Notes: a model not told the origin generated them from the letters alone. 64,000 bases of DNA from Candidatus Spongiisociaceae bacterium (GCA_965219685.1 CBDCOH010000002.1:1088001-1152000), one strand, 5' to 3'; shown: positions 19,005 to 37,542, counted from the stretch's first letter. A program made the numbers and translations.

Positions 19005-19328
19005 TCAGCGGCCCTGCCGTTCCATCACATAGCGTGTCACGCGCAGGATCTGTTCCTCGTTCAGGGTTCCCCGGAAGGACGGCATCCGGCCGATCCCGGC
19101 GGAGATCGACTGGACGAAGTAGCGCTCGGGCTTGTCGATGGAGCGGGCGTCCTCCCCCACCAGGGCGAGCCCGGTCCCGCCCTGCAGATCCTCGCCGTGA
19201 CAGCGGGCGCACACCTGCACGTAGATCTCCTGCCCGGTTGCGTCCTCGGGCACTCCCCCGCCGCCGCACGCATAGATCAGGAGCGTCATGGCGGCGACGA
19301 TCCCCACTCTCAGAACACGGACAATCAC
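19005..19328 (-). CDS. Monoheme cytochrome c lipoprotein
   Basis: Signal peptide ending LIYAC, heme motif CARCH, axial GRMPSF; GTGA overlap with the upstream gene. Confidence 0.85.
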   Translation of the reverse strand: MIVRVLRVGIVAAMTLLIYACGGGGVPEDATGQEIYVQVCARCHGEDLQGGTGLALVGEDARSIDKPERYFVQSISAGIGRMPSFRGTLNEEQILRVTRYVMERQGR

Positions 19329-19696
19329 GACGCCCTGTTGCCCCGGATCGAGTTGAGGTAGTTGTAGATCGTGATGCGGCTGACGCCCATCAGGTCGGCG
19401 ACCTCCTCTATGGACTTGCGCAGCCGGAAGGCTCCCCGCTCGTCCAGGAGGCGGACCGCCACCTGTTTCTGCACCCGTCCCAGGTCGGTCAGCTTGCCGC
19501 CCAACTCCGTCTCCACCTGGCCGACCATGCGATCGAGGACGTTGTGGAGGGACAGGATCCTTACTCCCGCCACCACCCGTCCCTCCCACTCCAGCGGGAC
19601 CGAGTTCCCGTCCATGCTGGTCGGCTCCACTATCTCCGCGCCCAGCGCGTCGGTCAGCGGCCGGATGGCCTCGATCAGCGGGTGCTCGCCACTCAT
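19325..19696 (-). CDS. HTH transcriptional regulator (HTH_22/YheO-DauR-like C-terminal domain)
   Basis: KQVAVRLLDERGAFRLRKSIEEVADLMGVSRITIYNYLN; ATG at 19696 overlaps the upstream stop. Confidence 0.85.
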   Translation of the reverse strand: MSGEHPLIEAIRPLTDALGAEIVEPTSMDGNSVPLEWEGRVVAGVRILSLHNVLDRMVGQVETELGGKLTDLGRVQKQVAVRLLDERGAFRLRKSIEEVADLMGVSRITIYNYLNSIRGNRAS

Positions 19697-19923
19697 GGTG
19701 TGACGGTCATGTTGACCGACACCCGGCTTGCGCCGGCGTCCATCGCCGCCCGGACGCAGTCGACGGCGGCGTGGAACACGATCTCGAGCGAGCCCTCTAT
19801 GGCGGTGCCGAACGGACCGATGTCCGGCCCGTAGGGCGAGAGGACGTCGATGGCTGCTTGGACATGGGGACCCGGGTTCCCCTCCTCGAACGGTTCTACG
19901 GTGAACTCGGCACGGGCCGGCAA
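19693..19923 (-). CDS. Small ferredoxin-fold protein, thiamine-binding/YkoF-like
   Basis: TTG start after GGAGAAGGA; AEFTVEPF..G.PGPHV, DIGPFGT, AMDAGASRVSV. Confidence 0.7.
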   Translation of the reverse strand: MPARAEFTVEPFEEGNPGPHVQAAIDVLSPYGPDIGPFGTAIEGSLEIVFHAAVDCVRAAMDAGASRVSVNMTVTP

Positions 19924-20000: not shown

Positions 20001-20015
20001 TTGACAAAATGTAAA
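20001..20015. promoter_or_regulatory. Palindromic operator candidate TTGACA-AAA-TGTAAA in the divergent HTH/xdh promoter
   Basis: 13/15 identical to the reverse complement of the site at 35689-35703; its left half is also a consensus -35 TTGACA. Confidence 0.65.
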
Positions 20016-20098
20016 GCGAGTGGTCGCAGACCGACCACCACACCGAGCTTCCGGCTGATGTTCGATCAGTAGGGAGCCTGATTCGGTTGGAGGACGCC

Positions 20099-22681
20099 AT
20101 GACCCTGATCGCCCACAGGACGATAGGTTTCAGGCTCAACGGACGTGATGTCTCTGTTCGGGCCGACCACCCCCACCTGCTGTCAGCGCTCCGCGAGGAA
20201 CTCGACATCACCTCGGCCAAGGACGGCTGTGCTCCGTCAGGTCAGTGCGGATGCTGCACGGTCCTGGTCAACGGCCGGGCTTTCGTGGCCTGCGTCCTGG
20301 CCCTTGAGAAGGTGGCGGGCAAGGAGGTCGTCACCCTCGAAGGATTCGACCCGGTCGAACGTGACCGTCTGGCCTCCGCCTTCGCAGTCACCGGCGCACT
20401 CCAGTGCGGCTTCTGCACGCCGGGGATCCTCGTCAGGACCAAGGCGCTGATCGACCAGAAGGGTTCCCGGCTCAACAAGCGGGTCACAGCCGGGAGGTTG
20501 GGAGCGCACCTCTGCCGCTGCACCGGTTACACGAAGATCTTCGACGCGATCGACATGCTGGCCTCCGGCGAGATCCCGCCGCTGGAGACGTCGGGCGGGA
20601 TCGGCAAGTCGGGTATCAAGTACGAGGCGTTGGAGCTGGCCCTGGGAGACCGCGACTACATCGACGACATCCGCTTCGACGGCATACTCCACGGGGCATT
20701 GCGGCTCACCGACCACGCCCGAGCCGACGTGGTGAGGATCGACACCGGTCCGGCGGAGGCCATTCCGGGCGTGCATGCCGTGTTCACCGCGGCCGATGTG
20801 CCCGGGGAGTTGCGGGTGGGCCTCATCCACAAGGACTGGCCGGTGCTGATTCCGGAGGGTGGGCGTACCTCCTACTACGGGGACGTTCTGGCCATCGTCG
20901 TCGCCGACGACAGGCTGGCGGCCCGCGAGGCGGCCGCGGCCATCGAGATCGAGTACCGCGTGCTGAAGCCGTTCACCGATCCGGCCGAGGCGGTGGCCTC
21001 CTCGGAGGACGCGGTGTGGGGCCTGGAAGGAAACGTCCTGTCCGTTTCCAAGTACCGGCGGGGGGACTTCGAGTCCGCATACGAGGCGTCGCCCCACAAG
21101 CTGCATGAGACGTTCGTCACCCAGCGGGTCGAGCACGCCTTCCTGGAGCCCGAGTCGACGCTGGTGGTTCCGGCGGGGAATGGGCGGTTGATGCTCTACT
21201 CCGGTGGCCAGGGGGTATGGGACGACCGCGACCAGGTGGCCTCGGTGCTGGGAGTCGAACCCTCGCAGATCACCGTGGAGCTCATCTCGAACGGGGGCGC
21301 CTTCGGCGGCAAGGAGGACATGGCCAACCAGGCGCAGACGGCCCTCGCCGCCCACCTGCTCGGTCGCCCCGTCAAGTGCACACTGTCGAGGGAGGAGTCC
21401 CTCCGCATCCACTCCAAGCGCCACCCCATCCGCATCGAGCTGTGGGCGGGCTGCGACAGCGACGGCAAGTTCACCGCCCTCAAGGCCCGCATGCTGGGCG
21501 ACTCGGGTCCCTACGCCTCTGTGGGTATGAAGGTCCTCGAGCGGGCCGCGGGGCATGCCAGCGGTCCCTACGTGGTGCCCAACATCGACGTGAAGGCCGT
21601 TGCGGCCCGCACCAACAACCCGGTGTGCGGCGCGTTCCGGGGCTTCGGCGCCAACCAGGCCCAGTTCGCCATGGAGGGAGTGATAGACCGCCTTGCAGAG
21701 CAGGTCGGGATCTCGGGCTGGGAGATGCGGAGTCGCAACGTCATCGAACCCGGGGTCGTCTGGGGTCCGGGCCAGGTGATGGACGAAGGCTGCCGGGGCG
21801 CCCGCGAGTCGCTCAACGCGGTCAAGCCTCATTACGACGCGGCCCGGGCCGCGGGCAAGGCCGTAGGGGTCGGACTGGGTCTCAAGAACAGCGGTCTGGG
21901 GAACGGCTTCAAGGAGGTGGCGCGCGCGGTGGTCCGCTTCACACGGGACGGGGCCGTCGAGGTGCGGCACTGCTGGACCGAGATGGGTCAGGGCATCCAT
22001 ACCGTGGCCCAACAGGTGGCGGCCGAGGAGTTGGGCATCGATCCCAAGCGGATCAGGGTGATCGTCGACACCAGCCGCGAACTCGGGGCCGGGCAGACCA
22101 CCGGCTCCCGGGGCACGCTGATGGGGGCGGGAGCGGTACAGGCCGCCAGCCGCGCCGCTGACGCCGGCGGGAGACTTCCCGATGTCGACTACCACGGCGA
22201 ATACCGGATCGACTGGACCAACTCGCTCAAGGAGGGTCTGGCGAACCCGACGATCCACTCCGCCTTCGGCTATGCGTCCCAGCTGGTCATAGCCGACAAG
22301 GCGACCGGGAAGATCGAGCGGGTGGTGGCCGCCCACGACGTGGGCCGGGCCATGCACCCGGTGTTGTGCGAGGGCCAGATCGAAGGCTCGGTCCACATGG
22401 GCCTCGGCTATGCACTGACCGAGGACTTCCCGGCCGACGACCAAGCCCGCCCCACCAACATGACGCTGCGCAGCCTGGGGATCATCCGCCCCAAGGACAT
22501 GCCGTACGTGGACGTGATCCTGGTCGAGGTCCCCCAGCCTCGCGCCCCCTACGGCATCAAGGGGGTCGGTGAGATTGGGCTGGTCCCGACCGCCGGGGCG
22601 GTGGCGGCTGCACTGCACGAGGTGGACGGGCAATGGCGGAATCGCCTTCCCATGGGTGTCCACCAGCCGGTCACCAAGTGA
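20099..22681 (+). CDS. Xanthine dehydrogenase-family molybdo-hydroxylase with fused 2x[2Fe-2S] domain (selenium-dependent XDH-like architecture)
   Basis: KDGCAPSGQCGCC, QCGFCTPG, CRCTGY, HAFLEPE, GGAFGGKE, AFRGFG..Q, EMGQG, TTGSR, GQIEG, KGVGE; about 860 aa. Confidence 0.9.
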   Translation: MTLIAHRTIGFRLNGRDVSVRADHPHLLSALREELDITSAKDGCAPSGQCGCCTVLVNGRAFVACVLALEKVAGKEVVTLEGFDPVERDRLASAFAVTGALQCGFCTPGILVRTKALIDQKGSRLNKRVTAGRLGAHLCRCTGYTKIFDAIDMLASGEIPPLETSGGIGKSGIKYEALELALGDRDYIDDIRFDGILHGALRLTDHARADVVRIDTGPAEAIPGVHAVFTAADVPGELRVGLIHKDWPVLIPEGGRTSYYGDVLAIVVADDRLAAREAAAAIEIEYRVLKPFTDPAEAVASSEDAVWGLEGNVLSVSKYRRGDFESAYEASPHKLHETFVTQRVEHAFLEPESTLVVPAGNGRLMLYSGGQGVWDDRDQVASVLGVEPSQITVELISNGGAFGGKEDMANQAQTALAAHLLGRPVKCTLSREESLRIHSKRHPIRIELWAGCDSDGKFTALKARMLGDSGPYASVGMKVLERAAGHASGPYVVPNIDVKAVAARTNNPVCGAFRGFGANQAQFAMEGVIDRLAEQVGISGWEMRSRNVIEPGVVWGPGQVMDEGCRGARESLNAVKPHYDAARAAGKAVGVGLGLKNSGLGNGFKEVARAVVRFTRDGAVEVRHCWTEMGQGIHTVAQQVAAEELGIDPKRIRVIVDTSRELGAGQTTGSRGTLMGAGAVQAASRAADAGGRLPDVDYHGEYRIDWTNSLKEGLANPTIHSAFGYASQLVIADKATGKIERVVAAHDVGRAMHPVLCEGQIEGSVHMGLGYALTEDFPADDQARPTNMTLRSLGIIRPKDMPYVDVILVEVPQPRAPYGIKGVGEIGLVPTAGAVAAALHEVDGQWRNRLPMGVHQPVTK

Positions 22682-23697
22682 ACACCACAGCTGGTCTCGT
22701 CTGTGCCCATCATCACCTCTACTCCGCGCTGGCGCGCGGGATGCCCGCTCCCCCTCAGGTGCCCACCACATTCCAGGGCATCCTCGACCAGGTCTGGTGG
22801 CGGCTCGACACCGCCCTCGACCTCGAGATGATCCGCTGGTCGGCCATGCTGGGCGCCCTCGAGGCGCTCGAGTCGGGCACCACCGGGATCGTGGACCACC
22901 ACGAGTCACCCAACGCCATCGAAGGCAGCCTGTCGGTGATCGCCGACGCCTGCGCCGAGGTGGGCGTCCGGGTACGGCCTTGCTATGGCGTGACCGACCG
23001 GCACGGACCGGACGGGGCCCGCCGCGGTCTCGAGGAGAACCGCCGCTTCCTGTCGGAGGGCGGGGAGGGAATGGTGGGGATCCACGCTGCGTTCACATGC
23101 GAGCAGGGGACCCTCGAGGAAGCCGCGGCCCTCGCCGATGAACTCGACGCCGGCGTGCATGTCCATGTCGCCGAGGGACCGGAGGATGAGGCGGGACCCG
23201 AGCGACTCGACGGTCTCACGCGGGACGAGTGGCTGCTCGCCCACGGAGTTCACCTCGCCACGGACCACGGTCTGAGTGGGACCATTCTCCACAATCCGCG
23301 GTCCAACCTCAACAACTCGGTCGGGTACGCCGACCCGGCCCGCTTCTCCAACCGGATCGCGCTCGGAACCGACGGGATCGGCGCCAACATGATCGAGTCC
23401 TTCCGCCTCGCCTACGTGATGCACCGGTCGGTCGACGTGGCCGCTACCCCCGAGACTGCATGGAGTTGGATGGAGAACGGATGGGATCTGATCCCCGAAT
23501 GCCGTAACGACCTGGTCACGTGGAGCTACGACCCGATGGATCCCTGGCACGTGGCGTTCACGTCCGGGATCCGGCCCCTGGGGGTAGAGGTGGACGGTGA
23601 GGTGATGTTCAAAAACGGCTCACCCACCAGGGTGGACGCCGCCGAGGTTCGCGCCAAGGCGCGCGAGCAGGCGACCCGGCTGCATGCCAGGCTTTGA
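22678..23697 (+). CDS. ssnA: SsnA-like amidohydrolase
   Basis: CAHHHLYSALARGM, WWRLD.ALD, GTT...DHHESP, HAAFT, HVHVAEG, HNPRSN.NN.VGY, LGTDG; GTGA overlap with xdh. Confidence 0.8.
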   Translation: MNTTAGLVCAHHHLYSALARGMPAPPQVPTTFQGILDQVWWRLDTALDLEMIRWSAMLGALEALESGTTGIVDHHESPNAIEGSLSVIADACAEVGVRVRPCYGVTDRHGPDGARRGLEENRRFLSEGGEGMVGIHAAFTCEQGTLEEAAALADELDAGVHVHVAEGPEDEAGPERLDGLTRDEWLLAHGVHLATDHGLSGTILHNPRSNLNNSVGYADPARFSNRIALGTDGIGANMIESFRLAYVMHRSVDVAATPETAWSWMENGWDLIPECRNDLVTWSYDPMDPWHVAFTSGIRPLGVEVDGEVMFKNGSPTRVDAAEVRAKAREQATRLHARL

Positions 23698-23719: not shown

Positions 23720-25510
23720 ATGACAGCTCCGAATGGAGTCCACGAACCGCTCACGCCTTTCGGTCTCTCCGACCTGCTCGACCGGATCGCCTACGAATGG
23801 GACTCGCGTCGCCGCATCTTCGACCTGCCCATCGCCCGCTTCTTCAACGTGTCCGAGGGTCCCGACATCTCGATCGACTTCCTGGGACGACCCGCCGCCA
23901 CGCCGGTGGGGCCGGCTGCCGGACCGCACAGCCAGATGGCGCAGAACATCATCCTGTCGTGGCTCGGCGGGGGCCGGCTGATGGAACTCAAGACGGTGCA
24001 GATCCTCGACGAACTGGAGATCGGGCGACCCTGCATCGACATGGAGACCATCGGCTACAACATCGAGTGGAGCCAGGAACTGAAGATCCCCCAGTCGCTC
24101 GAGGAATATGTCAAGGCCTGGATGATGCTCGAGATCATGCGCAACTGGGAGGAACTCACCCCTTACATCGGCAGCGATCCGGGTCCGTGCATCTTCGACC
24201 TGTCGGTCGGGTACGACCTGGCGGGAATCTCGACCGACCAGGTGGCCTGGTTCATCGACTCGATGATGGACGCCACCGAGGAGATCGAGCGTCTCCGGCC
24301 CGAGATTGACGGGAAGTTCACCCGGTTCCGCGACCTGGAGTTCCCGTCCCGCATCGCCGACACCGTGACCCTGTCGACGTTCCACGGCTGCCCACCCGAT
24401 GAGATCGAGTCGATCACAAAGCACCTGATCACCCGCCACGGGCTGGACGTGATCGTGAAGCTCAACCCCACCCTGCTCGGGTTCGAGCGGGTCAAGGAGA
24501 TCGTGCAGCAGACCCTGGGGTACGAGTCCACGGTGCTGCGCCGAGCGGACTTCGACAACGACCTCCAGTTCGACAGAGGCCTCGAGTTGATCGGCGAACT
24601 GCAGCGCTTTGCCGAAGACCACGGGCGCCGGTTCGGTGTCAAGCTCACCAACACCCTGGTCGTCGAGAACACCAAGGGGTTCATGCCCGATGAGACCATG
24701 TACCTGTCGGGGCCGCCGCTGCATGTCGTGTCCACCACGCTCTTGGGCGAGTTGCACAAGGCCCTGCCGGGGAGGCTGCGGATCGACGGTCAGGACGGCC
24801 CGGTGCAGGTGTCGTTCTCGGCAGGTATCACCAAGGAGAACCTCCCGGATGCAGCCGCGCTCGGGCTGGCACCGTTGACGATCTGCTCGGACCTCCTGAA
24901 GCCGGGCGGGTACGGGCGCATCAAGCCGATGCTGAAGGCACTGCAGAAGGTGATGGTCGGTGCAGGTTCGGGATCCCTGTCCGATTGGCAGGCCCATCGG
25001 GGCGCGCTGTCGAACGGGAGAGGAGCGGTGGCCGCCTACATAGCCCGGCTCCACGACCCGGCCACCAACGGGCGCTACACCCTGGAGGGCAACTCGAAGC
25101 TGCCCAGGGCCGTGGACCACGACCTGCAGATGTGGGGATGCGTGGCATGCAACTTCTGCGTCACCGTCTGTCCCAACGACGCCTTCTTCCGGATACCCAC
25201 CCCGCCCGAACTCGACGCGGTGGGCCTGCAGCAGTACCTGGTGTTGGCCGAGTTGTGCAACGAGTGCGGCAACTGCATGGTGTTCTGCCCCGAAGCGGGC
25301 GACCCGGCCGTCATCAAGCCCCGGCTCTACATGACCGAGCACCGCTTCCAGCAGGAGACCGAGCAGGCATTCCTGGTCCACCAGGATCCGGACGGCTACT
25401 GGGTACAGCCCAACGCCGAGGGCGCCCAGTGGACCGGCGACCTGCTCCTCCTGCTGAACGGCGCCGAGGGCTTCGTGCTGCCCCCGTCCACAAAGCCGGT
25501 CAGGAAGTAG
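23720..25510 (+). CDS. ygfK: YgfK-like oxidoreductase, short form (N-terminal barrel plus C-terminal 2x[4Fe-4S]; no FAD/NAD(P)H module)
   Basis: PVGPAAGPHSQMAQNI...ELKTVQILDEL, YNIEWSQEL, TLSTFHGCPPDEIE, KLNPTLLG, GVKLTNT, MYLSG, CSDLLKPGGYGR, then directly CVACNFCVTVCP and CNECGNCMVFCP. Confidence 0.8.
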   Translation: MTAPNGVHEPLTPFGLSDLLDRIAYEWDSRRRIFDLPIARFFNVSEGPDISIDFLGRPAATPVGPAAGPHSQMAQNIILSWLGGGRLMELKTVQILDELEIGRPCIDMETIGYNIEWSQELKIPQSLEEYVKAWMMLEIMRNWEELTPYIGSDPGPCIFDLSVGYDLAGISTDQVAWFIDSMMDATEEIERLRPEIDGKFTRFRDLEFPSRIADTVTLSTFHGCPPDEIESITKHLITRHGLDVIVKLNPTLLGFERVKEIVQQTLGYESTVLRRADFDNDLQFDRGLELIGELQRFAEDHGRRFGVKLTNTLVVENTKGFMPDETMYLSGPPLHVVSTTLLGELHKALPGRLRIDGQDGPVQVSFSAGITKENLPDAAALGLAPLTICSDLLKPGGYGRIKPMLKALQKVMVGAGSGSLSDWQAHRGALSNGRGAVAAYIARLHDPATNGRYTLEGNSKLPRAVDHDLQMWGCVACNFCVTVCPNDAFFRIPTPPELDAVGLQQYLVLAELCNECGNCMVFCPEAGDPAVIKPRLYMTEHRFQQETEQAFLVHQDPDGYWVQPNAEGAQWTGDLLLLLNGAEGFVLPPSTKPVRK

Positions 25511-25548
25511 GAACCCGTCCCGGTTCGTAGCGGCAGAGGGAGTGACCG

Positions 25549-26001
25549 ATGAGCCACACGATGGAGGATGTACGCCGCTTCGTCGGCGCTGACCACGGCC
25601 TGTCGGTGGTCTCTTTCGGGCGTCCTGACCAGTCCGTCCATTCCACCGTTGTCAACGCAGGTGTGATGGACCACCCGGTGACCTGCGAGGAAGTGGTGGC
25701 CCTGGTGGTGAGGGGTAACACCGTCAAGCTCCGCCACTGGCGCCACACGCCGCGGGCCGGCATCGTCTTCCGGTCCGGTTGGTTCTGGGCGGGCGTAGAG
25801 GGAACTACCAGCATCATCGGCCCGGATGATCCGTTCGAAGGGTTCGAGCCGTCAGCAGTGCCGCAGTTGCTCCGCGACGTGTTCACGGCCGCCGGGGGGA
25901 CCCACGAGGACTGGGACGAGTACGACCGCGTCATGGCGGCCGAGCGCCGGGCCGCGGTCTTCATCCACCCGACCCGCATCACCGGAGTCGGCCGACCCTG
26001 A
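25549..26001 (+). CDS. Pyridoxamine-5'-phosphate-oxidase-like (PPOX class, probably F420-dependent) oxidoreductase
   Basis: STVVNAGV..HP, K.R..R..P, W..VEG, LLRDVFTAAGGTHEDWDEYDRVMAAERR. Confidence 0.8.
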   Translation: MSHTMEDVRRFVGADHGLSVVSFGRPDQSVHSTVVNAGVMDHPVTCEEVVALVVRGNTVKLRHWRHTPRAGIVFRSGWFWAGVEGTTSIIGPDDPFEGFEPSAVPQLLRDVFTAAGGTHEDWDEYDRVMAAERRAAVFIHPTRITGVGRP

Positions 26002-27895: not shown

Positions 27896-28168
27896 GAGGC
27901 CCGGATCATAGTTCCCCGATAGCGGTGGCCGTTGCTGGCCCGGTCGATGATCGGGGGAGCAAGCGGGATGGCTCTCCCGGGAGCCTTACCATCCTCGGCT
28001 GGCGGTACCACCACGCAGCCCACCAAGGCAAGCGCATCGACCCCGACTCCCGCAGCGCCTACGATTCCCACGAACCAGGCGAACCATTTCGAGACCGAGC
28101 GCTGGCGAGCCCATAGCCCCGTTAGTTATTCTCTCGCGCTTTGGATTGCCCTCGCCTGGAAAGTTCTT

Positions 28169-28194
28169 CTTTAGATTATCATGATAATCTAAAG
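28169..28194. promoter_or_regulatory. Perfect 26-bp palindrome directly upstream of the second AAA_14 gene
   Basis: CTTTAGATTATCA|TGATAATCTAAAG, ending 3 nt before ATG 28198. Confidence 0.8.
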
Positions 28195-28197
28195 CTA

Positions 28198-29349: not shown

Positions 29350-29403
29350 GACACGCCGAAACGAACCGGGAGCGGCAACCGCGATGTCTCGGCATTGCGA
29401 ACG

Positions 29404-29780
29404 TTACGGCCAGCGGTGAACTCTCGGGCCAACCGGCGCGAGCACGGCAGGCAGCTTCGCGAGATCGTCTGGATCGCCCGTCAGAGTGTTGCCGTCCCGC
29501 AGCCGGAGGGCGAGTTGGACGAGATGACCGTCTGCGACATCCGATGAATGAGAGAGAGCCAGGAGCCGATCGACCGACGGACCGTCATCAAGCGAGTGCA
29601 CCGTCACTGTCTTGAGCAGCGCGGTCAGGCGGCCCTGCCGGGACCCATCCCGCCACACCTGGGGCTACTACCGGATGGCTGGCATGCAGCCCAGTACCTG
29701 AGCGAGCGACCGCGGTGAGATGAAGCGTATGGATTCGTCGCCGCGGCCGACCGATGTCAACACCCAGCGTCGAGGATCAC
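29404..29780 (-). pseudogene. Frameshifted PIN-domain toxin gene
   Basis: Segments in different frames: VILDAG / VLTSVGRGDES / LTAVARSGTGLHASHPVVA / QVWRDGSRQGRL...DVADGHLV...LTGDPDDL. Confidence 0.7.
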
Positions 29781-29925
29781 AGTCCGTACGCCGCGCCATT
29801 GCTGCTAGCGCTTCCTCCTTCACCGGACCAGCTTCGGCGTGCGAAGCCTCGAGAAGGACTCGAGGGGCGACGCGTCGCGGCCGGTCAGCCGCCAGTGATC
29901 TCAGAGCCTGGCGGATGGCGTGCGA
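29777..29925 (-). pseudogene. Remnant of the cognate antitoxin of the PIN toxin
   Basis: AIRQALRSLAADR...LLEASHAEAGPVKEEALAAMARR ends in a GTGA overlap with the PIN start; 5' end missing. Confidence 0.45.
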
Positions 29926-29954
29926 CTTGCCCCCGAACAGCGGTGCGAACCCGT

Positions 29955-30079
29955 CGAGGATCTACTTGTTGTGGGCATCGAGCCGGACGGTCGTAGTGGA
30001 GGGAGCCCGTTTACATGTTGTGGTCTCCGTAGGCGCTCGACCGAGCATCGTCATCACCGTCTATTGGGTTGCTCCTTGA
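29955..30079 (+). pseudogene. 3' remnant of a DUF4258-like toxin
   Basis: ...GARLHVVVSVGARPSIVITVYW* directly upstream of a DUF2283-like gene. Confidence 0.45.
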
Positions 30080-30090
30080 AGGAGAACCGG

Positions 30091-30331
30091 ATGCAGGTTC
30101 GCTATGACTCGGAAGCCGATGCGATCTTTCCTCTTGCTGCACGCCGCCCACGGCGAGGAAGCCGGCGGGAGGCGGCTCGACGATACCCGCATCGCCCACC
30201 TCGACCGCTCGGGCCGTGTCTTCGCGTGCGAGTTCCGGTCCGTGAGCCAAGGGGTTTCCCTCGACGGAAGCGACGACGCAACCCTGATCCGTGAAACGCT
30301 CCGGCCCGTGAACCAGATCGCAGTCGCCTGA
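30091..30331 (+). pseudogene. Frameshifted DUF2283-family protein
   Basis: RBS AAGGAG, MQVRYDSEADAIF, then continues in another frame as ...RLDDTRIAHLDRSGRVFACEF. Confidence 0.65.
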
Positions 30332-30466
30332 CGGCAGGTTGTCGAGTTGCCTCGCTCCGAACCAGGCCTTGGGTCTGCGTCGAGAAGGCCACCGTCGCAG
30401 GACAACACCTGACAACCCACCGAACGGAGCCCTGCCAACCGGATGCCGGGCACGGCGTAGGCGGCC

Positions 30467-31027
30467 TCACTCGCCGAAGAGGGCGCTTACCTCGCATGAG
30501 AACCCGGGTAGGACGTCCGCTCCGTCGAGGGTGGCGTCCTCGCCGAGTGTCGACACTGGGAGACCGGGACGGTACACGTCAACGGTGCGCGTAGCCGGAT
30601 CCACCACCCAGACCAGACGGACGCCGTGGTTCAGCCACATCCATGCCTTGTTTCGGACCTCCCGCCTGCTGTCATTGGGCGACACCACCTCCGCCACCAG
30701 GTCGGGAACCGTCTCCGAGTACCCGGTCACCCGCATCCCCGCCGGTACCTTCTTCACCGAGAAAAACGCGACATCGGGCTCCCGCACGGTGTCGGGATCG
30801 CGTTCCAGCCAGACACCCGCATCCGAGCCCGTCAACCGTCCCAACCGCCGGGGCTTGACGAAACCACCCAGCTCAGCGCCAAGGTTCATCACTATCTCGC
30901 CGTGTTCCTGTCCGGTCGGCCTGGTCTCGTGTAGTACCCCCCGGATGAGCTCGCCGCGCACGCCACTGCTGTCGAGACGGAGCAACTCACCTGCGGTCAA
31001 TAGCTTGGCGTCGGTGGCCGTTGTCAT
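30467..31027 (-). CDS. Uma2 family restriction-endonuclease-like protein
   Basis: ELIRG, VREPDVAF, PDLVAEVVSPND, GVRLVWVVDP, VLPGF. Confidence 0.92.
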   Translation of the reverse strand: MTTATDAKLLTAGELLRLDSSGVRGELIRGVLHETRPTGQEHGEIVMNLGAELGGFVKPRRLGRLTGSDAGVWLERDPDTVREPDVAFFSVKKVPAGMRVTGYSETVPDLVAEVVSPNDSRREVRNKAWMWLNHGVRLVWVVDPATRTVDVYRPGLPVSTLGEDATLDGADVLPGFSCEVSALFGE

Positions 31028-31094: not shown

Positions 31095-32555
31095 TCATCC
31101 GAGTCCGGTGAGGCTGTTGAACTCCTCTATGAGTCGGTCGATGGGGTCGGCCAAGGTCTGGATGCTGGTCCAGTAGTCGTCGTCGTACCACTGGGCCTGG
31201 ATCTCCTCGTATGTCTTGCCCTGTTGCTCCACCCAGGTGTAGTACTTGAGGTTGTGGATGCGCTTGCGGTCGTAGTAGCCGAGTTCGTGGACGTGTTCGG
31301 TGGAGGCCCCCAGCAGGTGGCGGTGGTAGGCGGCCACCGCGTCGTGGGTGGTGAACGTGCCGCGGTCCTCGCTGAGTTCGTGGAGCCGGCTCCGGTACAT
31401 GTCCATCGAGTCGGTGGCGATGGTGACCACTATGTCCCGGCTGGTCATCTCGTAGTACTTGGCGAGTTTGACGGCGGACAGCAGGTTGGCGGCGCCGGAG
31501 ATGCCGAGCAGGGGAAGGCTTCCTAGGACATCGGGATCTACTCCTTGCGATGCCAGGTACTCCCGGCCTGGCGCCTCGTTGAACAGCCGGGTGAGGGACA
31601 TGGCGGCCTCGTCGTCGAGCCCGATGGCGAGGTCGGTGTTCTTGACGTTGTGGACCCAGGGGATGTGCTTGTCGCCGATTCCCTCGATGCGGTGCTCCCC
31701 GAAGCCGTTCAGCAGCATGGTGGGACACTGGATGGCCTCACCCCCGGCGATCACCGAGCCGGGGAATCGCTGCTTCAGGTAGTCGCCGGCGGCGATGGTT
31801 CCGGCCGAGCCGGTGGTGACCGCGAACCCCCGGAACCGGTCGCGCTCGCCCATCACGTCGTCCAACACCTCCTCGACGGCGGGGCCGGTGACCGACACGT
31901 GCCACAGGTAGTTTCCGAACTCGTCGAACTGGTTGAAGATCATCAGGTCCTCGCCGGAGGCGGCCAACTCGTTGCACTTGTCGAAGATCTCCTTGACGTT
32001 CGACTCCGAACCGGGAGTCTTGATGATCTCCCCGGCCACCGTCTGCAACCACTCGAAGCGCTCGCGGCTCATCCCCTCCGGGAGGATCGCCACCGACTCG
32101 CAGCCCAGCAGGTTGGAGTCGTAGGCGCCGCCGCGGCAGTAGTTCCCCGTGGAAGGCCACACCGCCTTCTGGGTTGACGGGTCGAACTGTCCGGTGACCA
32201 GGCGGGGAACCAGGCAGCCGAAAGCCGCTCCCACCTTGTGGGCGCCGGTCGGGAACCACTTGCCGATCAGGGAGATGATCCGGGCCTCGACACCGGTCAG
32301 TTCGGACGGCCACTCGACGTAGTTGACTGGTCCGAACCCGCCCCCTTGGGCGACCGGTTCGTTGTGCCAGGTGATCCGGTACAGGTTGAGGGGGTGGAGA
32401 TCCCACAGACCGATGCCCGCGAGGCCTGACCGGACCTCGGATGGGATCAGGTTCGGGTCCCGCATCTGGGCGAGGGTCGGGATGCGCACCCGGCGCTCCC
32501 TGGTGTGGGCCGCCACCGACTCGAGGGCGGCCGCGTCAACGGTCAGATCGATCAT
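31095..32555 (-). CDS. Fold-type II PLP-dependent enzyme (cysteine synthase/beta-subunit-like, function unknown)
   Basis: GKWFPTGAHKVGA (PLP Lys), WPSTGNYCRGG, GSAGT, HRIEGIGDKHIPW, GISG.AN. Confidence 0.85.
   Translation of the reverse strand: MIDLTVDAAALESVAAHTRERRVRIPTLAQMRDPNLIPSEVRSGLAGIGLWDLHPLNLYRITWHNEPVAQGGGFGPVNYVEWPSELTGVEARIISLIGKWFPTGAHKVGAAFGCLVPRLVTGQFDPSTQKAVWPSTGNYCRGGAYDSNLLGCESVAILPEGMSRERFEWLQTVAGEIIKTPGSESNVKEIFDKCNELAASGEDLMIFNQFDEFGNYLWHVSVTGPAVEEVLDDVMGERDRFRGFAVTTGSAGTIAAGDYLKQRFPGSVIAGGEAIQCPTMLLNGFGEHRIEGIGDKHIPWVHNVKNTDLAIGLDDEAAMSLTRLFNEAPGREYLASQGVDPDVLGSLPLLGISGAANLLSAVKLAKYYEMTSRDIVVTIATDSMDMYRSRLHELSEDRGTFTTHDAVAAYHRHLLGASTEHVHELGYYDRKRIHNLKYYTWVEQQGKTYEEIQAQWYDDDYWTSIQTLADPIDRLIEEFNSLTGLG
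32542..32555. repeat. 14-bp direct repeat, copy 1 (GTCAGATCGATCAT; first 14 nt of the PLP gene)
   Basis: Identical to 33398-33411. Confidence 0.85.
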
Positions 32556-32698
32556 ATTCAGGCGTCCTTCGGCCCTGTTGGGCCGGGTAGTGGTCCATTA
32601 CGGTCGATCCTCCTGCCTGTGCAGGGTGATCTGCTCTCCACAGTTCCGATCGGGCCAGGGCCGGTGCGGATCATCGAACAAGGTCGCAGTAGGACGGT

Positions 32699-32917
32699 TT
32701 ACGACCATACCCTCTCGTTGACCACGATCGCGCCAACATCGGTCTCGTCTATGTCGAGCGAACAGGCGATCAGGTCGCGTGCGGCATTCTCCACCTCGTC
32801 GAAGTGCGCCGCCTGCGTGTAGCCGAACTTCAACCCGAGCACCCTGACTGCCCACCAGCCATCGGCCGTGTTGAACGCTTCAACCTGGTACATATCGGTC
32901 GTACCTAGGGTTGTCAC
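32699..32917 (-). CDS. Short HicB-like antitoxin
   Basis: YQVEA....GWWAVRV......TQA..FDEVE..ARDLIA; GTGA overlap with hicA; no C-terminal DNA-binding domain. Confidence 0.7.
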   Translation of the reverse strand: MTTLGTTDMYQVEAFNTADGWWAVRVLGLKFGYTQAAHFDEVENAARDLIACSLDIDETDVGAIVVNERVWS

Positions 32918-33111
32918 CGGACGGCCTCCCTGGCTTCTCTGAGGATTGCTCTGGCAGTATGTTCGTTGACCTCGCGGTGACGGGGGATGTAGACCCGCTC
33001 GCCGCCAAACGTCCATATCTGATGGCTGCGACCCTCACGGAGGAAGCGGAACTCCACGTCGGCCGACTTGGCGATGATCCGGAGTTGCCTCACGAGGTTC
33101 CGCCTTTTCAT
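32914..33111 (-). CDS. HicA-like toxin
   Basis: MKRRNLVRQL...REGRSHQIW...IPRHREVNEHTARAILR. Confidence 0.8.
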   Translation of the reverse strand: MKRRNLVRQLRIIAKSADVEFRFLREGRSHQIWTFGGERVYIPRHREVNEHTARAILREAREAVR

Positions 33112-33397
33112 AAGAGGTTAACAGTCGTTATGTGCCGTGCGAGCCTGGCCACCCTGCCATGTGGCAGTGCTGGCTTCAATACCTACGCGGTGCGGGTGCC
33201 GGCCGGTCATACAGATGTTGTATCAACGACACATGGCCCCATCAACCCCTTCGTGTTGTGCCGAACCGGACTGGGCACGGTGCGGGTGCGACCTCCGAGT
33301 GGCAGTTCCTCCATATAAGTCGAGAGTGCCAAACAAGAGCGATCGCCTTTGGCTCCGCCAACGCCCGGCGCCCGATGCGAACTCGTTGTCGCCAATA

Positions 33398-33411
33398 GTC
33401 AGATCGATCAT
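33398..33411. repeat. 14-bp direct repeat, copy 2; begins a dead MIDLT... start overlapping the thrC-like stop
   Basis: Identical to 32542-32555; the ATG overlaps the TGA of the upstream gene (ATGA). Confidence 0.85.
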
Positions 33412-34715
33412 GTCTGCTTCCTTAGCTTCCGGATCCACTGTTCCATTCTGGTGGCTATCTCGTCGGGGTCCAGCCCGTCCGGACCCGGACGGACCGGCAG
33501 GGGTACCGCGCCTGTCCTGTCGATCCCGCGCATCACCCCGCGGATGTCCTTCAGACCAGATCCGGTGGAGATGACCACCACCCGGTCGAGGGTCCCCTCC
33601 CCCCGCGGGTCTCCCTGCGATCCGTCCGCCACTTCGGCCAGCCCGGCGAAGGCGGCCGCCGCGGCCGGTTCGGGAAAGATGCCGGAGTCGGCCGACACAG
33701 TCGGGATCATCTCCAGGATGGCCTCGTCATCGACCGTCACCCATGCACCCCCGGTCTCGACTACCGCGGCCATCGCCTTGACTCGATCGCGGGGCAGGTC
33801 GGCGCTGATGGAGTCGGCGGCGGTGTCGGCGGCGACGGGCTGTTTGGTGACCACATCCTCCTCCTCCAGCCAGGCCTCGGCCAGATAGGAGCTGCCTTCG
33901 GCCTGCACTCCGTAGATGCGGGGCATGCGGTCGATCCATCCCAGTTTCAAGGCGTCCTTGAAGCCCTTGTGCACCCCTCCGATGATCGACCCGTCGCCCA
34001 CGCTTACGAACACCGCGTCCGGCGCCTCCCAGCCCAGTTGCTCGGCGATCTCCAGGGCCACGGTCTTCTTGCCTTCTCCCACGTAGGGATTGATCCCGGT
34101 GTTCCGGTTGTACCAACCGAAGCGTGCCACCGTTTCCTGGCATAACCGGAAGGCGTCGTCGTAGGTGCCCTCCACGAGCATCACGAACGCCCCGAAGGCG
34201 AGGAGTTGGGCGACCTTCGCCTCCGGTGCGGTGTCGGGGACGAAGATCACCGCGGTCTGGCCGGTTCCTGCCGCGAGACCGGCCAGGGCGGCGGCGGCGT
34301 TTCCCGTGGACGCGGTGGTGACCGTCTCGGCCCCTTCCTGGGCAGCTCTGGCCAGTGCGACCGCCGAGGCCCGGTCCTTGAGGGAAGCGGTCGGCTGGCG
34401 CCCCTCGTCCTTGATCCAGAGTCGCCCTACGCCCCAGCGCCGGGCCAGTCTCTCCGCCTCGACGAGCGGGGTCCCGCCCACTCCGAGAGCGGAGACAACC
34501 GTGGAGGACCCGACAGGAAGCAGGGGGCGGTAGCGCCACATGGACCGGTCCGGGTCTGCCGCCAGGCTCTCGCGTGTCAGCGTTTCGTTGATGGCGGCGT
34601 AGTCGTAGCGGGCGTCGAGGGTGCCCGCATCGCCGCAGCGGTCGCATACGTAGCGGCCCGGAGAGGGTTGGTACGACGCGGCGCAGACGGTGCATCGCAG
34701 CCCGGTCAGGTACAT
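33408..34715 (-). CDS. Threonine synthase-like fold-II PLP enzyme with N-terminal Zn ribbon
   Basis: CTVC/CDRC, SMWRY..LLP, GGTPL, PTASLKDR, ASTGNA, EGKKT, VGDG, EPAAA, TGSGLKD. Confidence 0.85.
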   Translation of the reverse strand: MYLTGLRCTVCAASYQPSPGRYVCDRCGDAGTLDARYDYAAINETLTRESLAADPDRSMWRYRPLLPVGSSTVVSALGVGGTPLVEAERLARRWGVGRLWIKDEGRQPTASLKDRASAVALARAAQEGAETVTTASTGNAAAALAGLAAGTGQTAVIFVPDTAPEAKVAQLLAFGAFVMLVEGTYDDAFRLCQETVARFGWYNRNTGINPYVGEGKKTVALEIAEQLGWEAPDAVFVSVGDGSIIGGVHKGFKDALKLGWIDRMPRIYGVQAEGSSYLAEAWLEEEDVVTKQPVAADTAADSISADLPRDRVKAMAAVVETGGAWVTVDDEAILEMIPTVSADSGIFPEPAAAAAFAGLAEVADGSQGDPRGEGTLDRVVVISTGSGLKDIRGVMRGIDRTGAVPLPVRPGPDGLDPDEIATRMEQWIRKLRKQT

Positions 34716-34718
34716 CCG

Positions 34719-35657
34719 CTAGGCAGGTGGTACGGCGCCACGCCGCTCGGTGATCAGCCCGTAGTGCTCGTGCATCCGGTAGTAGTCGAAGTCGAACAAT
34801 GTCTGCTTGTAGGTGTCGCAGAAGTCGAGGTCGATGGTGGTCGAGATCACCTCGTCCTCGGTGGTGACCGCTTGGGCGATGATCTGCCCGGACGGGGCGA
34901 TGATGACGCTCTGGGCGAGGCTGTCCACCCCCTCCTCGATTCCCCCCTTGGCGACCCCGACCACGAAGGCGCCGTTCTGGTAGGCGCCGGCCTGCATCAC
35001 GAGGTGGTTGTGGAATCCGGACAGCGCGTTCTGGGTGGGGTCGGGCGCGTAGTGGAGCGGGGTGTTGTAACCGATCAGGATCAGCTCGGCTCCCTGCAGG
35101 CCGAGCACCCGGTAGGTCTCCGGCCAGCGGCGGTCGTTGCAGATCGCCATCCCTACGATCCCGCCGAAGGCGTTCCAGGCTCCGAACCCGTCCGGCCCCG
35201 GCTCGAAGTAGTGCCGCTCGGCGTGCTGGAACTCCCGCCACGGCTCGTATTGGGCGTGGCCGGGTATGTGTATCTTGCGGAACTTGGATACCACGGTCCC
35301 GTCGCGTTCCACCAGTATGTAGGTGTTGTAACGATGCTCGACGCCCTGGTCGTCGGTGGCGATCTCCGCGTACCCGAGCGCGAACCCGATCCCAAGGCGG
35401 CGCGCCTCGTCGAACAGCGGCTTGGTGTCGCGGTCGGGCATCTCCCGGTGGTAGTAGTGCTCGAACTCGGCGGGGTCCGCGACGAACCATCGCGGGAAGA
35501 AGGTCGTCATGGCCAGCTCCGGGTAAACCAGCAGGTCGACCCCTTGGTCGTGTGCATCGTGCAGCATCGTCATCAGGCGGTCCACCACTTCGCTCTTCGA
35601 CTCTTCCCGGGCGATGGGGCCCATCTGGCCCGCGCCGACGGTGATCCGTCTCGACAT
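34719..35657 (-). CDS. N-carbamoyl-D-amino-acid amidohydrolase (nitrilase superfamily)
   Basis: QMGPI, PELAMTTFFPRW, RKIHIPGH, ICNDRRWPE, GYNTP, QAGAYQN. Confidence 0.9.
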   Translation of the reverse strand: MSRRITVGAGQMGPIAREESKSEVVDRLMTMLHDAHDQGVDLLVYPELAMTTFFPRWFVADPAEFEHYYHREMPDRDTKPLFDEARRLGIGFALGYAEIATDDQGVEHRYNTYILVERDGTVVSKFRKIHIPGHAQYEPWREFQHAERHYFEPGPDGFGAWNAFGGIVGMAICNDRRWPETYRVLGLQGAELILIGYNTPLHYAPDPTQNALSGFHNHLVMQAGAYQNGAFVVGVAKGGIEEGVDSLAQSVIIAPSGQIIAQAVTTEDEVISTTIDLDFCDTYKQTLFDFDYYRMHEHYGLITERRGAVPPA

Positions 35658-35688
35658 CTGAGAATCCTCCTCGGTCTATCGCTGTTAT

Positions 35689-35703
35689 TTTACAGTTTGT
35701 AAA
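35689..35703. promoter_or_regulatory. Palindromic operator candidate TTTACA-GTT-TGTAAA between the divergent carbamoylase genes
   Basis: Perfect 6-3-6 palindrome; matches 20001-20015. Confidence 0.7.
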
Positions 35704-35750
35704 CTGCGGTGCGGTCCCGAGGGTGGCCGTGTCGAGGCAAGGAGGTCAGG

Positions 35751-36593
35751 ATGGCGAATGTGGTGCGGGCGGCGCTGGTCCAGAGCGAGTGGACGGGCGA
35801 CAAGGAGTCCATGATCGAGAAGAACATCGGGTACGCCCGCGAGGCCGCCGCGCAGGGGGCGCAGATCCTGTGCTTCCAGGAGATCTTCAACACCCCGTAC
35901 TTCTGCACGCACCAGGAGAACGAGCACTTCGCAACCGCCGAACCCATCCCCGAGGGTCCCACCGTCTCCAGGATGATCGAGTTGTCTCGCGAGACCGGAA
36001 TGGTGCTGATCGTCCCGATCTTCGAGGTGGAGGACACCGGCCACTACTACAACGCCGCGGCGGTCATCGACGGCGACGGCACCTACCTCGGCAAGTACCG
36101 CAAGACCCACATTCCCCAGGTGGCCGGCTTCTGGGAGAAGTTCTACTTCCGGCCCGGCAATCTCGGCTATCCGGTCTTCGACACCACCGTGGGCCGCATC
36201 GGCATCTATATCTGCTACGACCGCCACTTTCCCGAGGGCTGGCGGGAGCTGGGTCTGGCCGGCGCAAAAATCGTCTTCAACCCCTCCGCCACCACCCGGG
36301 GCCACTCCAAGTATCTGTGGGAGTTGGAACAACCGGCCGCCGCGGTGGCCAACGAGTACTTCGTGGGCGCCATCAACCGGGTCGGAAGCGAGAACCTGGA
36401 GGGTACCGACTACTACGGCAGTTCCTACTTCGCCTCGCCCCGGGGGCAGATCATCGGGGGTACCGCCTCGGACACCGCCGACGAGGTGGTGGTGAGGGAT
36501 CTTGACCTCGACCTGATCGAGGAGGTTCGCCACCATTGGGCTTTCTACCGGGATCGCCGCCCCGAGATCTACGACCGGATCGCGACTCCCTGA
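35751..36593 (+). CDS. Nitrilase-family hydrolase, beta-ureidopropionase-like
   Basis: RBS AAGGAGG; FQEIFNTPYFC, GKYRKTHIP, FWEKFYFRPG, ICYDRHFPEG, FNPSAT, FYRDRRPE. Confidence 0.9.
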   Translation: MANVVRAALVQSEWTGDKESMIEKNIGYAREAAAQGAQILCFQEIFNTPYFCTHQENEHFATAEPIPEGPTVSRMIELSRETGMVLIVPIFEVEDTGHYYNAAAVIDGDGTYLGKYRKTHIPQVAGFWEKFYFRPGNLGYPVFDTTVGRIGIYICYDRHFPEGWRELGLAGAKIVFNPSATTRGHSKYLWELEQPAAAVANEYFVGAINRVGSENLEGTDYYGSSYFASPRGQIIGGTASDTADEVVVRDLDLDLIEEVRHHWAFYRDRRPEIYDRIATP

Positions 36594-36615: not shown

Positions 36616-37542
36616 TCAGCCGTCCTGGTTCCTGGCGGCCGACCCCTCTGCCCAAGTAGCGAAGCCGACCACCACCAGGCAGGACCCGAGGGCGAGGGTA
36701 ACCGGGACCACTATGTCGGGTCCCGGAGTTCCGAGCATCGTGGCGCCGATCCCGTCCTCATCGCCGAGTCCGTTCGGCCAGGGCCACAGGATGCGGAAGG
36801 ATCCGGCCATCAGGCCAATCATGGTCGCCACCACCAGGTCGTGGTAGCGCTCCAGGAGCCACTCCAGGAGCCGGGAGAACAGGCCCAGGCCTGCCGCCGC
36901 GCCGGCGGCGAGACTCAAGAGCGCGCCGATCCGCAGGTCGGTCACCGCTCCGAGGGCGTGCTGGTACATGCCGATCGCCAGCAGCAGGAAGGATCCGCTC
37001 ACGCCGGGGAGTATGAAAGCACAGATGGCGAGGGCCCCGGCGGCCGCGAACACGTACCAGCCGGGGTCGTGGACGGCCGCACCACGCAAGCCGAAAAGGA
37101 CGAAGGCGGCGGCGCCGACGATGGCCGCCATGGCTCCGTGCACCACTCCGGGTGTCCGGATCTGCCACCAGGCGACCACGATCGCGCCGGCGATGAGCCC
37201 GAAGAAGACGGCTGCGATCCGGACGGGGTGATCCCGCAGCAGGTCCTCCACGACCCGCGCCAGGGCTGCAACCGAAACGACGGCGCCGGCCACCACCGCA
37301 AGCAGGAAGCGCCAGTCGATGCGTCGGAAGGCCCGGACGGCTCCACCCGGGTCGCCTCTGATGAGGCGTCCCGCACTCAGGGCTCCCGTACCGATCGCTG
37401 TGACGAGGCGTCCGTAGATGCCGGTGACGAGCGCCACCGTGCCGCCGGAGACACCCGGCACCAGGTCGGCCGTGCCTATGGCCAGCCCACGAACGACCAG
37501 CCCAGCGGTCTCCCGGGCCCCATAGATGCTGGATTTGTCCAT
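36616..37542 (-). CDS. DUF368 family membrane protein
   Basis: G.AD.VPGVSGGT.A...GIY and ILPGVSGSF.LL..G.Y repeats, LWPW. Confidence 0.9.
   Translation of the reverse strand: MDKSSIYGARETAGLVVRGLAIGTADLVPGVSGGTVALVTGIYGRLVTAIGTGALSAGRLIRGDPGGAVRAFRRIDWRFLLAVVAGAVVSVAALARVVEDLLRDHPVRIAAVFFGLIAGAIVVAWWQIRTPGVVHGAMAAIVGAAAFVLFGLRGAAVHDPGWYVFAAAGALAICAFILPGVSGSFLLLAIGMYQHALGAVTDLRIGALLSLAAGAAAGLGLFSRLLEWLLERYHDLVVATMIGLMAGSFRILWPWPNGLGDEDGIGATMLGTPGPDIVVPVTLALGSCLVVVGFATWAEGSAARNQDG

Follow-up and report, generated by a model that had tools for sequence, protein, structure and literature searches.

The reductive uric-acid pathway, which proceeds through 2,8-dioxopurine (yanthine), was described in 2025, for gut bacteria only. 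In Escherichia coli and Clostridia it comprises XdhD-YgfM, YgfK, SsnA, HyuA, YgeW with YqeA (or UacY), YgeY and YgeX (PMC12507026; bioRxiv 10.1101/2025.04.24.650524). UacY of Clostridioides difficile, a homologue of D-aminoacylase, replaces YgeW and YqeA and provides a hydrolytic precedent (PMC12507026). The order of ureido cleavage and the stereochemistry (R/D) of the intermediates are listed as open points (PMC12990295). The words carbamoylase, nitrilase, ureidopropionase, threonine synthase and cysteine synthase are absent from the two 2025 descriptions outside their supplements (PMC12507026; bioRxiv 10.1101/2025.04.24.650524), and a literature search, likewise excluding these supplements, returned no paper joining the reductive urate pathway with a carbamoylase or nitrilase. 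Here we consider four genes at positions 31095-36593 of a 64,000-nt stretch from an uncultured actinobacterium, a Candidatus Spongiisociaceae bacterium (GCA_965219685.1, CBDCOH010000002.1:1088001-1152000, contig C2 below). The whole stretch is called the window; its G+C content is 62-69%, and the genome measures 4.39-4.42 Mb. Open reading frames (ORFs) were called with a filter based on G+C at third codon positions (GC3), and families were assigned by Pfam and NCBIfam profile scans.

The elements of the four-gene locus, which include two pyridoxal phosphate (PLP) enzymes, are:

34719..35657, minus strand: N-carbamoyl-D-amino-acid hydrolase (DCase), 312 aa; CN_hydrolase, 161.9 bits
33408..34715, minus strand: ThrC-like PLP enzyme (ThrCl), 435 aa; PALP, 250.3 bits
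31095..32555, minus strand: divergent PLP enzyme of the CysK/CBS fold (PALP2), 486 aa; Pfam PALP, 51.7 bits
35751..36593, plus strand: beta-ureidopropionase-type amidase of the nitrilase superfamily (bUP), 280 aa; CN_hydrolase, 216.7 bits
35689..35703, no strand: palindrome copy 2, TTTACAGTTTGTAAA, between the divergent starts of DCase and bUP

An operon about 5 kb from this locus carries homologues of the upper-pathway enzymes:

20001..20015, no strand: palindrome copy 1, TTGACAAAATGTAAA, in the divergent promoter region of a regulator operon and xdhD
20087..22681, plus strand: XdhD-like molybdenum hydroxylase with a fused 2Fe-2S domain; TIGR03311 (Se_dep_XDH), 808.8 bits, cut-off 830.45
22633..23697, plus strand: SsnA-like amidohydrolase, short form; NF005540, 251.1 bits, cut-off 444, profile positions 59-442
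23720..25510, plus strand: YgfK-like reductase without the GltD-type FAD/NAD(P)H part; TIGR03315, 431.7 bits, cut-off 835.3
25549..26001, plus strand: PPOX-class F420-type oxidoreductase, the final gene of the xdhD operon; TIGR03618, 62.4 bits, cut-off 79.05

The layout given by the initial annotation, with DCase, ThrCl and PALP2 on the minus strand, bUP divergent and a palindrome between them, was recovered in full. The same annotation had predicted a hydrolytic alternative lower pathway built from two carbamoylases and PLP enzymes, and comparative genomics supports this prediction well. Every check named in that annotation and open to sequence analysis favoured it. We propose, with a probability of roughly 0.68, that 31095-36593 encodes a hydrolytic lower half of the reductive uric-acid pathway and that 20087-26001 encodes its upper half. 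The proposal rests on gene identities, linkages, co-occurrence, a single bUP clade and a conserved operator, all substrates being inferred. A D-hydantoinase encoded elsewhere in the genome would open the SsnA product to (R)-2,3-diureidopropionate. DCase, as an enzyme for N-carbamoyl-D-alpha-amino acids, is the proposed hydrolase of the alpha (2-) ureido group, and bUP that of the beta (3-) ureido group, acting either before or after DCase. PALP2, the presumed terminal enzyme, would then convert 2,3-diaminopropionate to pyruvate and ammonia with the help of ThrCl, its presumed partner, the pair taking the place of YgeX. No carbamoyl phosphate would be formed, so the ATP of the YgeW/YqeA route would be given up and all nitrogen released as ammonia. 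The chemistry fits: in the 2,3-diureidopropionate that a D-hydantoinase would yield, an N-carbamoyl-D-alpha-amino acid is combined with a beta-ureido group (pathway as in PMC12507026).

DCase aligns over residues 1-307 with the solved enzyme 8i99 (381.6 bits) and matches 1fo6 at 355.4 bits. It keeps E47, K128 and C173, as well as N174, R176-R177 and H145 (counted on the alignment). These residues correspond to the catalytic triad Glu47/Lys127/Cys172 and the ligand contacts Asn173, Arg176 and His144 given in PMC11503299.

Co-occurrence was assessed in 201 Acidimicrobiia genomes, the present one included and the sample identical for each query, by cross-tabulating per-genome match tables for PALP2-like, DCase, SsnA and YgeX-like proteins. 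DCase occurs in 47 genomes and SsnA in 60. As the initial annotation had anticipated, the genes travel with ssnA: 46 of the 47 DCase holders and all 53 genomes with a PALP2-like protein are SsnA-positive, the sole exception being a 400-contig genome with a partial DCase. Of the 47 holders, 35 have DCase and SsnA on one contig and no more than 10 kb apart; the usual distance, 2.6 kb, equals the length of xdhD, and in five of these 35 the two genes abut. They are on separate contigs in six holders and more than 10 kb apart in five, among them the present genome (11 kb). PALP2-like proteins divide into 18 with at least 63% identity (including that of the present genome and a split copy in G121) and 35 with 43-50%; the close relatives of PALP2 are labelled Acidimicrobiia or Candidatus Poriferisocius by their sources. 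YgeX-like proteins (E <= 1e-40) were found in 19 of the 201 genomes, three of them over the family cut-off. Six SsnA-negative genomes have weak YgeX-like matches as well. Among the 60 SsnA-positive genomes, 47 have only a PALP2-like protein, seven only a YgeX-like one, six both and none neither. The expected mutual exclusivity with ygeX therefore takes the form of complementarity in 54 of 60 genomes and breaks down in the six that hold both. The co-occurrence pattern persists within the patchily distributed families f2, f3, f4 and f17. In family f14, all 21 sampled genomes contain a PALP2-like protein (43-48% identity), DCase and SsnA, the PALP2-like gene standing alone and far from DCase.

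The window genes have the same associations in other families. In L130-L136 (L-numbers denote neighbourhood loci of relatives that were examined, such as L027-L029, L113 and L130-L137), bUP diverges from a DCase-XdhD-SsnA(-YgfK) operon, and a PALP2-like gene lies a few kilobases from bUP. L137 contains the DCase-XdhD-SsnA operon, with bUP not in view. The two operons are about 5 kb apart in the window and 2.5-4.3 kb apart in its nearest relatives, L113 and L027.

The canonical lower-pathway genes, whose complementary distribution the initial annotation had raised, do not exceed their family cut-offs anywhere in the genome. The best match is 31.5 bits for ygeW (cut-off 500) and 120.2 bits for ygeY (cut-off 321.5), while the best diaminopropionate-lyase match for ygeX is ThrCl itself (36.9 bits, cut-off 274). 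Neither cluster nor genome holds HyuA, ygeW, ygeY and ygeX as a canonical set; UacY was not searched for.

A palindrome links the two operons. TTTACA-N3-TGTAAA has two matches in the window, with 0.07 expected from shuffles, and at one mismatch or fewer these two sites, each at a divergent promoter, are the only ones in the whole genome. The initial annotation had noted the palindrome between the divergent genes; its second copy upstream of xdhD and its conservation in relatives bear that out. The identical 15-mer separates bUP from DCase in L113, L027 and L029 despite differing flanks, a like site precedes xdhD in L113 (position 308), and variants occur in L130-L133 and L136. The palindrome was not found at up to two mismatches in L028, L122, L124, L134 or L135. 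Across 41 Acidimicrobiia loci (757 kb), 13 sites with at most one mismatch fall in 11 loci. Lone PALP2-like genes of L139, L141, L142 and L144 also have the palindrome in front of them, at a distance of 45-84 nt; the first two loci belong to family f14 and the other two to other families. Allowing two mismatches gives eight sites in the genome, the two strong ones and six weaker ones. One weaker site is found 22 nt before a pyridine-nucleotide disulfide oxidoreductase gene. Four of the six weaker sites were examined and showed no link to purine genes, two of them lying in stretches nearly without typical ORFs. Only the 15-mer core is common to both sites: the surrounding 18-mer occurs just once in the window, and an apparent common flank, 'CGCAGTTT', was dropped as out of register.

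The regulator operon opposite xdhD consists of two small genes:

19325..19699, minus strand: short HTH_22 (YheO-type) regulator, 124 aa; Pfam HTH_22, 65 bits
19693..19920, minus strand: Thiamine_BP/MTH1187-like small protein, upstream of the regulator and in the same direction; PF01910, 34.9 bits

The HTH_22 regulator probably acts on both the xdhD operon and the four-gene locus by way of the palindrome, to which we infer that it binds. Homologous HTH_22 genes lie between bUP and the PALP2-like gene in L131 and L132, and a Thiamine_BP-like homologue is present within the purine cluster of L130.

The two PLP enzymes have different affinities. The best NCBIfam match of PALP2 is cysK (TIGR01139). 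Its AlphaFold2 model (pLDDT 90.7) has extra helical parts at the N- and C-terminus, and Foldseek with this model retrieves CBS, CysK and beta-cyanoalanine synthase as the best matches (20-25% identity, E 5.5e-14, target TM-score ~0.8). ThrCl exceeds the cut-off of the thrC profile TIGR00260, falls under that of NF006050 (290.4 bits, cut-off 303) and carries an N-terminal CxxC...CxxC zinc ribbon. Threonine synthases are the best Foldseek matches of its model (pLDDT 91.2; 31-37% identity), and K113 aligns with the PLP lysine K61 of Thermus thermophilus ThrC. However, T88, S155 and R160 of the T. thermophilus enzyme, which are T, S and R in 2zsj, 6cgq and 1uim, correspond to A140, G207 and V212 in ThrCl, and A140 is invariant in 26 ThrCl sequences. 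We take the three replaced residues to be substrate-phosphate contacts of threonine synthase, a role for which we found no paper. Neither protein reaches the YgeX profile cut-off (TIGR01747/NF006058): ThrCl scores only 63.9 against 276 bits, and PALP2 has no listed match.

Species-representative genomes of many phyla yielded 591 PALP2 relatives, and the best 80 loci, many of them short contigs, were surveyed by tblastn with window proteins and cluster representatives. ThrCl was found near PALP2 in 42 of the 80 loci, hydantoinase in 28, an OTC/YgeW-like carbamoyltransferase in 27, carbamate kinase in 23, XDH in 15, YgeY in 11, YgfK in 10, SsnA in nine, DCase in four, and bUP and YgeX in three each. 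At least one of these purine-pathway markers is present in 53 of the 80 loci, and a YheO-PAS+HTH_22 protein recurs in five. In the 36 loci with both ORFs called on one strand, ThrCl precedes PALP2 with a gap of -4 to 30 nt in nine and of about 1 kb in 18 from Chloroflexota, where the gap holds a glycosyltransferase-like gene. A polyprenyl-phosphate glycosyltransferase-like gene stands between ThrCl and PALP2 in 22 of the 80 loci (e.g. Chloroflexota L058 and L060). In 27 of the 80 loci (L053, L056, L058 and others), mostly from Chloroflexota, PALP2 is followed by a protein of ~188 aa that matches no Pfam or NCBIfam family and often precedes a hydantoinase and a family-less protein of ~535 aa.

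The genes upstream of the PLP pair vary. All 17 orthologue loci of the class sample contain ThrCl-PALP2. DCase and bUP are upstream of the pair in the window, L027-L029, L113, L122 and L124. A carbamoyltransferase occupies this place in 12 class-sample loci, accompanied in 11 by carbamate kinase, and a second carbamoyltransferase was confirmed in L116 and L128. A carbamoyltransferase with YgeY is found in, for example, L073, L075 and L089; in L114 and L115 nothing was recognised upstream of the pair. Two further loci, homologous betaproteobacterial operons that provide independent cases outside the class, connect the pair with the known lyase. In L094 (a metagenome-assembled genome of Methyloversatilis), genes for RpiR, a TRAP transporter, an M20 hydantoinase/carbamoylase-family amidase, DCase, ThrCl and PALP2 run in one direction. 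L215, on a Cupriavidus oxalaticus plasmid (NZ_CP038636.1, 205658-212687), is a compact operon for RpiR, diaminopropionate ammonia-lyase (527 bits, cut-off 276), an M20 amidase, DCase, an MFS transporter and a YgeY-family hydrolase (393 bits, cut-off 321). RpiR, the M20 amidase and DCase are 49%, 71% and 72% identical between the two loci, so similar operons house ThrCl-PALP2 in one case and the known lyase in the other. XDH and SsnA are not in view in L215, which looks like a stand-alone module for uptake and breakdown of carbamoylated diaminopropionate.

These variants bear on the strongest alternative, that the genes belong to the urate pathway but the PLP enzymes either take a ureido intermediate (e.g. 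by beta-elimination of urea from albizziin) or salvage diaminopropionate by beta-replacement. PALP2 shares its fold with CBS, CysK, beta-cyanoalanine synthase and O-ureidoserine synthase, all of them enzymes of beta-replacement; its gene adjoins that of a true YgeX in L046, L047 and L052; and two PLP enzymes are kept where one lyase would suffice. However, every variant places two decarbamoylating enzymes beside the pair, so both ureido groups seem to be removed before the PLP step. The complementarity of PALP2-like and YgeX-like proteins in 54 of 60 SsnA-positive genomes and the exchange of the pair for YgeX between L094 and L215 also count against it, and we regard the alternative as unlikely.

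The second alternative, already named in the initial annotation, is a general D-hydantoin or reductive pyrimidine module, in which DCase and bUP would act on N-carbamoyl-D-amino acids and beta-ureidopropionate and the PLP genes would be unrelated amino-acid enzymes. The bUP ORF spans 35709-36593 on the plus strand, with a likely ATG start at 35751 preceded by AAGGAGG. The protein scores 196.7 bits to the N-carbamoylputrescine amidase 5h8i and 176-187 bits to beta-ureidopropionases, and falls below the AguB equivalog cut-off (TIGR03381, 257.6 against 410.25 bits). It shares 71% of its residues with the CN hydrolase in a pyrimidine-type cluster at 2.79 Mb on C2, which encodes an ABC transporter, the CN hydrolase, a class-III aminotransferase, a hydantoinase and an aldehyde dehydrogenase. 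In the class sample, 63 of 201 genomes have a bUP-like gene. DCase-holding genomes of the same order have two copies, one of them no more than 10 kb from DCase in 17 genomes. A tree of 76 sequences (IQ-TREE quick search, LG+G4, with a more distant type of CN hydrolase as root) unites all 20 DCase-linked copies in a single clade with an SH-aLRT of 100. This clade is nested among the single copies of SsnA-negative genomes and the second, pyrimidine-type copies, and the pyrimidine-cluster copy of the present genome falls with the sequences not linked to DCase. The clade is marked by E166, H185 and T219, which are A, L and N in other copies. On this phylogeny, bUP is a dedicated DCase-linked paralogue.

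Beyond the similarity of the two amidases, the hydantoin or pyrimidine explanation draws on the hydantoinases: three over the cut-off are encoded 0.7-1.7 Mb away in the genome, each clustered with a CN hydrolase. It also draws on DCase homologues borne on alphaproteobacterial plasmids of Aminobacter, Sulfitobacter, Agrobacterium, Martelella and Roseomonas, which lie beside hydantoinase, racemase or transporter genes. Against it, the pyrimidine-type cluster already has its own beta-ureidopropionase, aminotransferase and aldehyde dehydrogenase, and the DCase-linked bUP clade is seen in DCase-holding genomes only. The close linkage of DCase to SsnA in 35 of 47 genomes, often within the XdhD operon, and the common palindrome that ties the cluster to xdhD likewise speak against it, leaving it a little less probable than the previous alternative. 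One of the hydantoinases is a candidate for the HyuA step, namely that of L149 (C2:2273001-2291000). The same region encodes a three-subunit XDH/CO-dehydrogenase-type enzyme, a CN hydrolase 51% identical to bUP, a short-chain dehydrogenase/reductase (SDR) and a luciferase-like protein.

That ThrCl and PALP2 are housekeeping threonine and cysteine synthases merely beside catabolic hydrolases is very improbable: although ThrCl exceeds the TIGR00260 cut-off (186.4 against 167.1 bits) and relatives of PALP2 are named 'cysteine synthase' by their sources, PALP2 reaches just 84.5 bits against a cysK cut-off of 350.95, ThrCl lacks the T, S and R of three solved threonine synthases, a second thrC of E. 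coli type, looked for in view of the initial annotation, exists at C2:1485406 (252.4 bits), so that ThrCl is not the sole one, and in the class sample both proteins are restricted to SsnA-positive genomes, besides occurring in purine clusters of many phyla.

Several observations weigh against assigning the cluster to a hydrolytic branch of the urate pathway. CysK/CBS and ThrC enzymes are known for L-substrates, whereas DCase leaves a D-amino acid. The XdhD, SsnA and YgfK homologues share one operon, yet each scores below its NCBIfam cut-off. No hydantoinase is present in the cluster, either here or in most Acidimicrobiia relatives. In L134 and L135, a carbamate kinase and a carbamoyltransferase are placed between DCase and bUP, so all four occur together and the swap is not one for one. 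Nor are PALP2 and YgeX strictly exclusive: a YgeX-like protein accompanies a PALP2-like one in six of 53 class genomes, YgeX exceeds its cut-off in nine of 43 PALP2-holding genomes of many phyla, and it directly follows PALP2 in the three related Bacillota loci L046, L047 and L052. ThrCl was not found in these three loci, nor beside the PALP2-like form with 43-50% identity in the class loci, and the need for ThrCl is unexplained. The five plasmid DCases named above have no diaminopropionate lyase nearby. The genomes of the class sample are kin, so its counts overstate independence, and the bUP tree is supported by SH-aLRT values alone, from a quick search.

The remaining features of the window concern the upper operon and the junction of the PLP genes. 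The XdhD-like protein contains the Pfam domains MoCoBD_1/2 and Fer2_2. The YgfK-like match covers only positions 4-396 of the 1012-position profile, with 4Fe-4S motifs also present, and the PPOX-class gene after it is kept in L027 and L113. Ring reduction may draw on another electron donor than in E. coli. The genes separating the two operons encode a PhyH dioxygenase, a DHDPS-family protein, a DUF4143 ATPase and a Uma2 nuclease. The PhyH-family Fe/2-oxoglutarate dioxygenase gene (26054-26857, minus strand) has a counterpart with 90% identity at the same place in L113, and a second PhyH gene lies at 11102-11983. The DUF4143 AAA ATPase and Uma2 nuclease genes fall within 28141-31027 in the inter-operon gap. 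In L113, where this gap is 2.5 kb, tblastn gave no match to the DHDPS-family protein; the ATPase and nuclease were not searched for there. The genes of 28141-31027 look like later additions. On the other side of the locus, a PopT/VCA0040-like polyprenyl-phosphate transporter gene (36616-37542, minus strand) flanks bUP in the window and in L027-L029. Two unrelated polyprenyl-phosphate genes, this transporter and the glycosyltransferase-like gene, accompany the same PLP module.

In the window, ThrCl and PALP2 are separated by an insert that the initial annotation had not mentioned:

32556..33411, no strand: insert between the PLP genes, 856 bp; direct repeat 32534-32555/33390-33411
32914-33111, minus strand: weak HicA-like ORF inside the insert; HicA_toxin, 23.4 bits, under the cut-off of 27

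The flanking direct repeat of 22 nt (19/22 identical) duplicates the start of PALP2. The insert, a single copy in the genome, is located exactly at the overlap of the ThrCl stop and the PALP2 start, and a possible HicA-partner ORF without family match lies at 32699-32893 (minus strand). The same junction in L027 holds a stretch 79.5% identical to the insert over 435 nt. No insert was found in L028, L029 or L113, and the PLP genes abut in L028 and L113. The insert is secondary to the cluster.

A broader proposal, to which we give somewhat less than even odds, is that purine catabolism is the native job of a large 'D-carbamoylase' clade, acting on the alpha-ureido group of (R)-2,3-diureidopropionate or 3-amino-2-ureidopropanoate. 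In the same proposal, the ThrC-like and CysK/CBS-like pair would convert D-2,3-diaminopropionate to pyruvate by a novel two-protein route, analogous to YgeX and not homologous in function. For example, one of the two might invert the D-isomer or activate it while its partner eliminates ammonia. If this is true, industrial D-carbamoylases gain a physiological substrate, and natural variation would support the D (R) configuration of the intermediate. Finding a D-specific carbamoylase in this position favours the D form, and a strictly D-specific alpha-N-carbamoyl hydrolase together with a beta-ureido hydrolase would bear on both cleavage order and stereochemistry. Under the hydrolytic proposal itself, the three lower-pathway enzymes of E. 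coli would be replaceable by unrelated families, so surveys based on ygeW, ygeX and ygeY would miss such urate degraders, here marine Acidimicrobiia. Sponge and coral metagenomes contain no more than small parts of the stretch, and we make no claim on habitat. Candidate functions would also emerge for two large PLP families widely labelled threonine synthase and cysteine synthase.

Compared with the pathway of E. coli and Clostridia, the window has one operon with XdhD and SsnA homologues and a counterpart of the substrate-reducing part of YgfK, each scoring below its family cut-off, and the proposed logic is the same: two ureido groups are taken off a C3 diamino acid, and a fold-type II PLP step follows. 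The differences lie in the means. The genome has no YgeW, YqeA-linked transferase, YgeY or YgeX. The decarbamoylases of the window are both of the nitrilase superfamily, its PLP step would be carried out by ThrC-like and CysK/CBS-like proteins, its YgfK lacks the FAD/NAD(P)H half, HyuA is not in the cluster, and its probable regulator is a short HTH_22 protein that would act at an operator of its own. The variant with two carbamoyltransferases and carbamate kinase (L030, L031, L116-L129) belongs to the same class and has the same ThrCl-PALP2 pair in the same position relative to SsnA/YgfK/XdhD. That variant would make carbamoyl phosphate and ATP, whereas in the window DCase and bUP fill the slot and carbamate kinase is missing.

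The individual hydrolases can likewise be set beside characterised relatives. bUP has the fold of nitrilase-type beta-ureidopropionase and AguB and belongs to the same branch, but stands in a distinct DCase-linked clade and under the AguB cut-off. DCase resembles the enzymes of the hydantoinase process over its full length (344-382 bits to those of Agrobacterium, Pseudomonas and Nitratireductor; 1fo6, 1uf4, 6lcg and 8i99) and keeps their catalytic triad and ligand-contact residues. Unlike them, it is tied to XdhD/SsnA and to genes that would process diaminopropionate in place of a hydantoinase/racemase pair. This setting suggests a natural role for a D-carbamoylase, whose natural substrate in the window would be a diureido or mono-ureido C3 acid.

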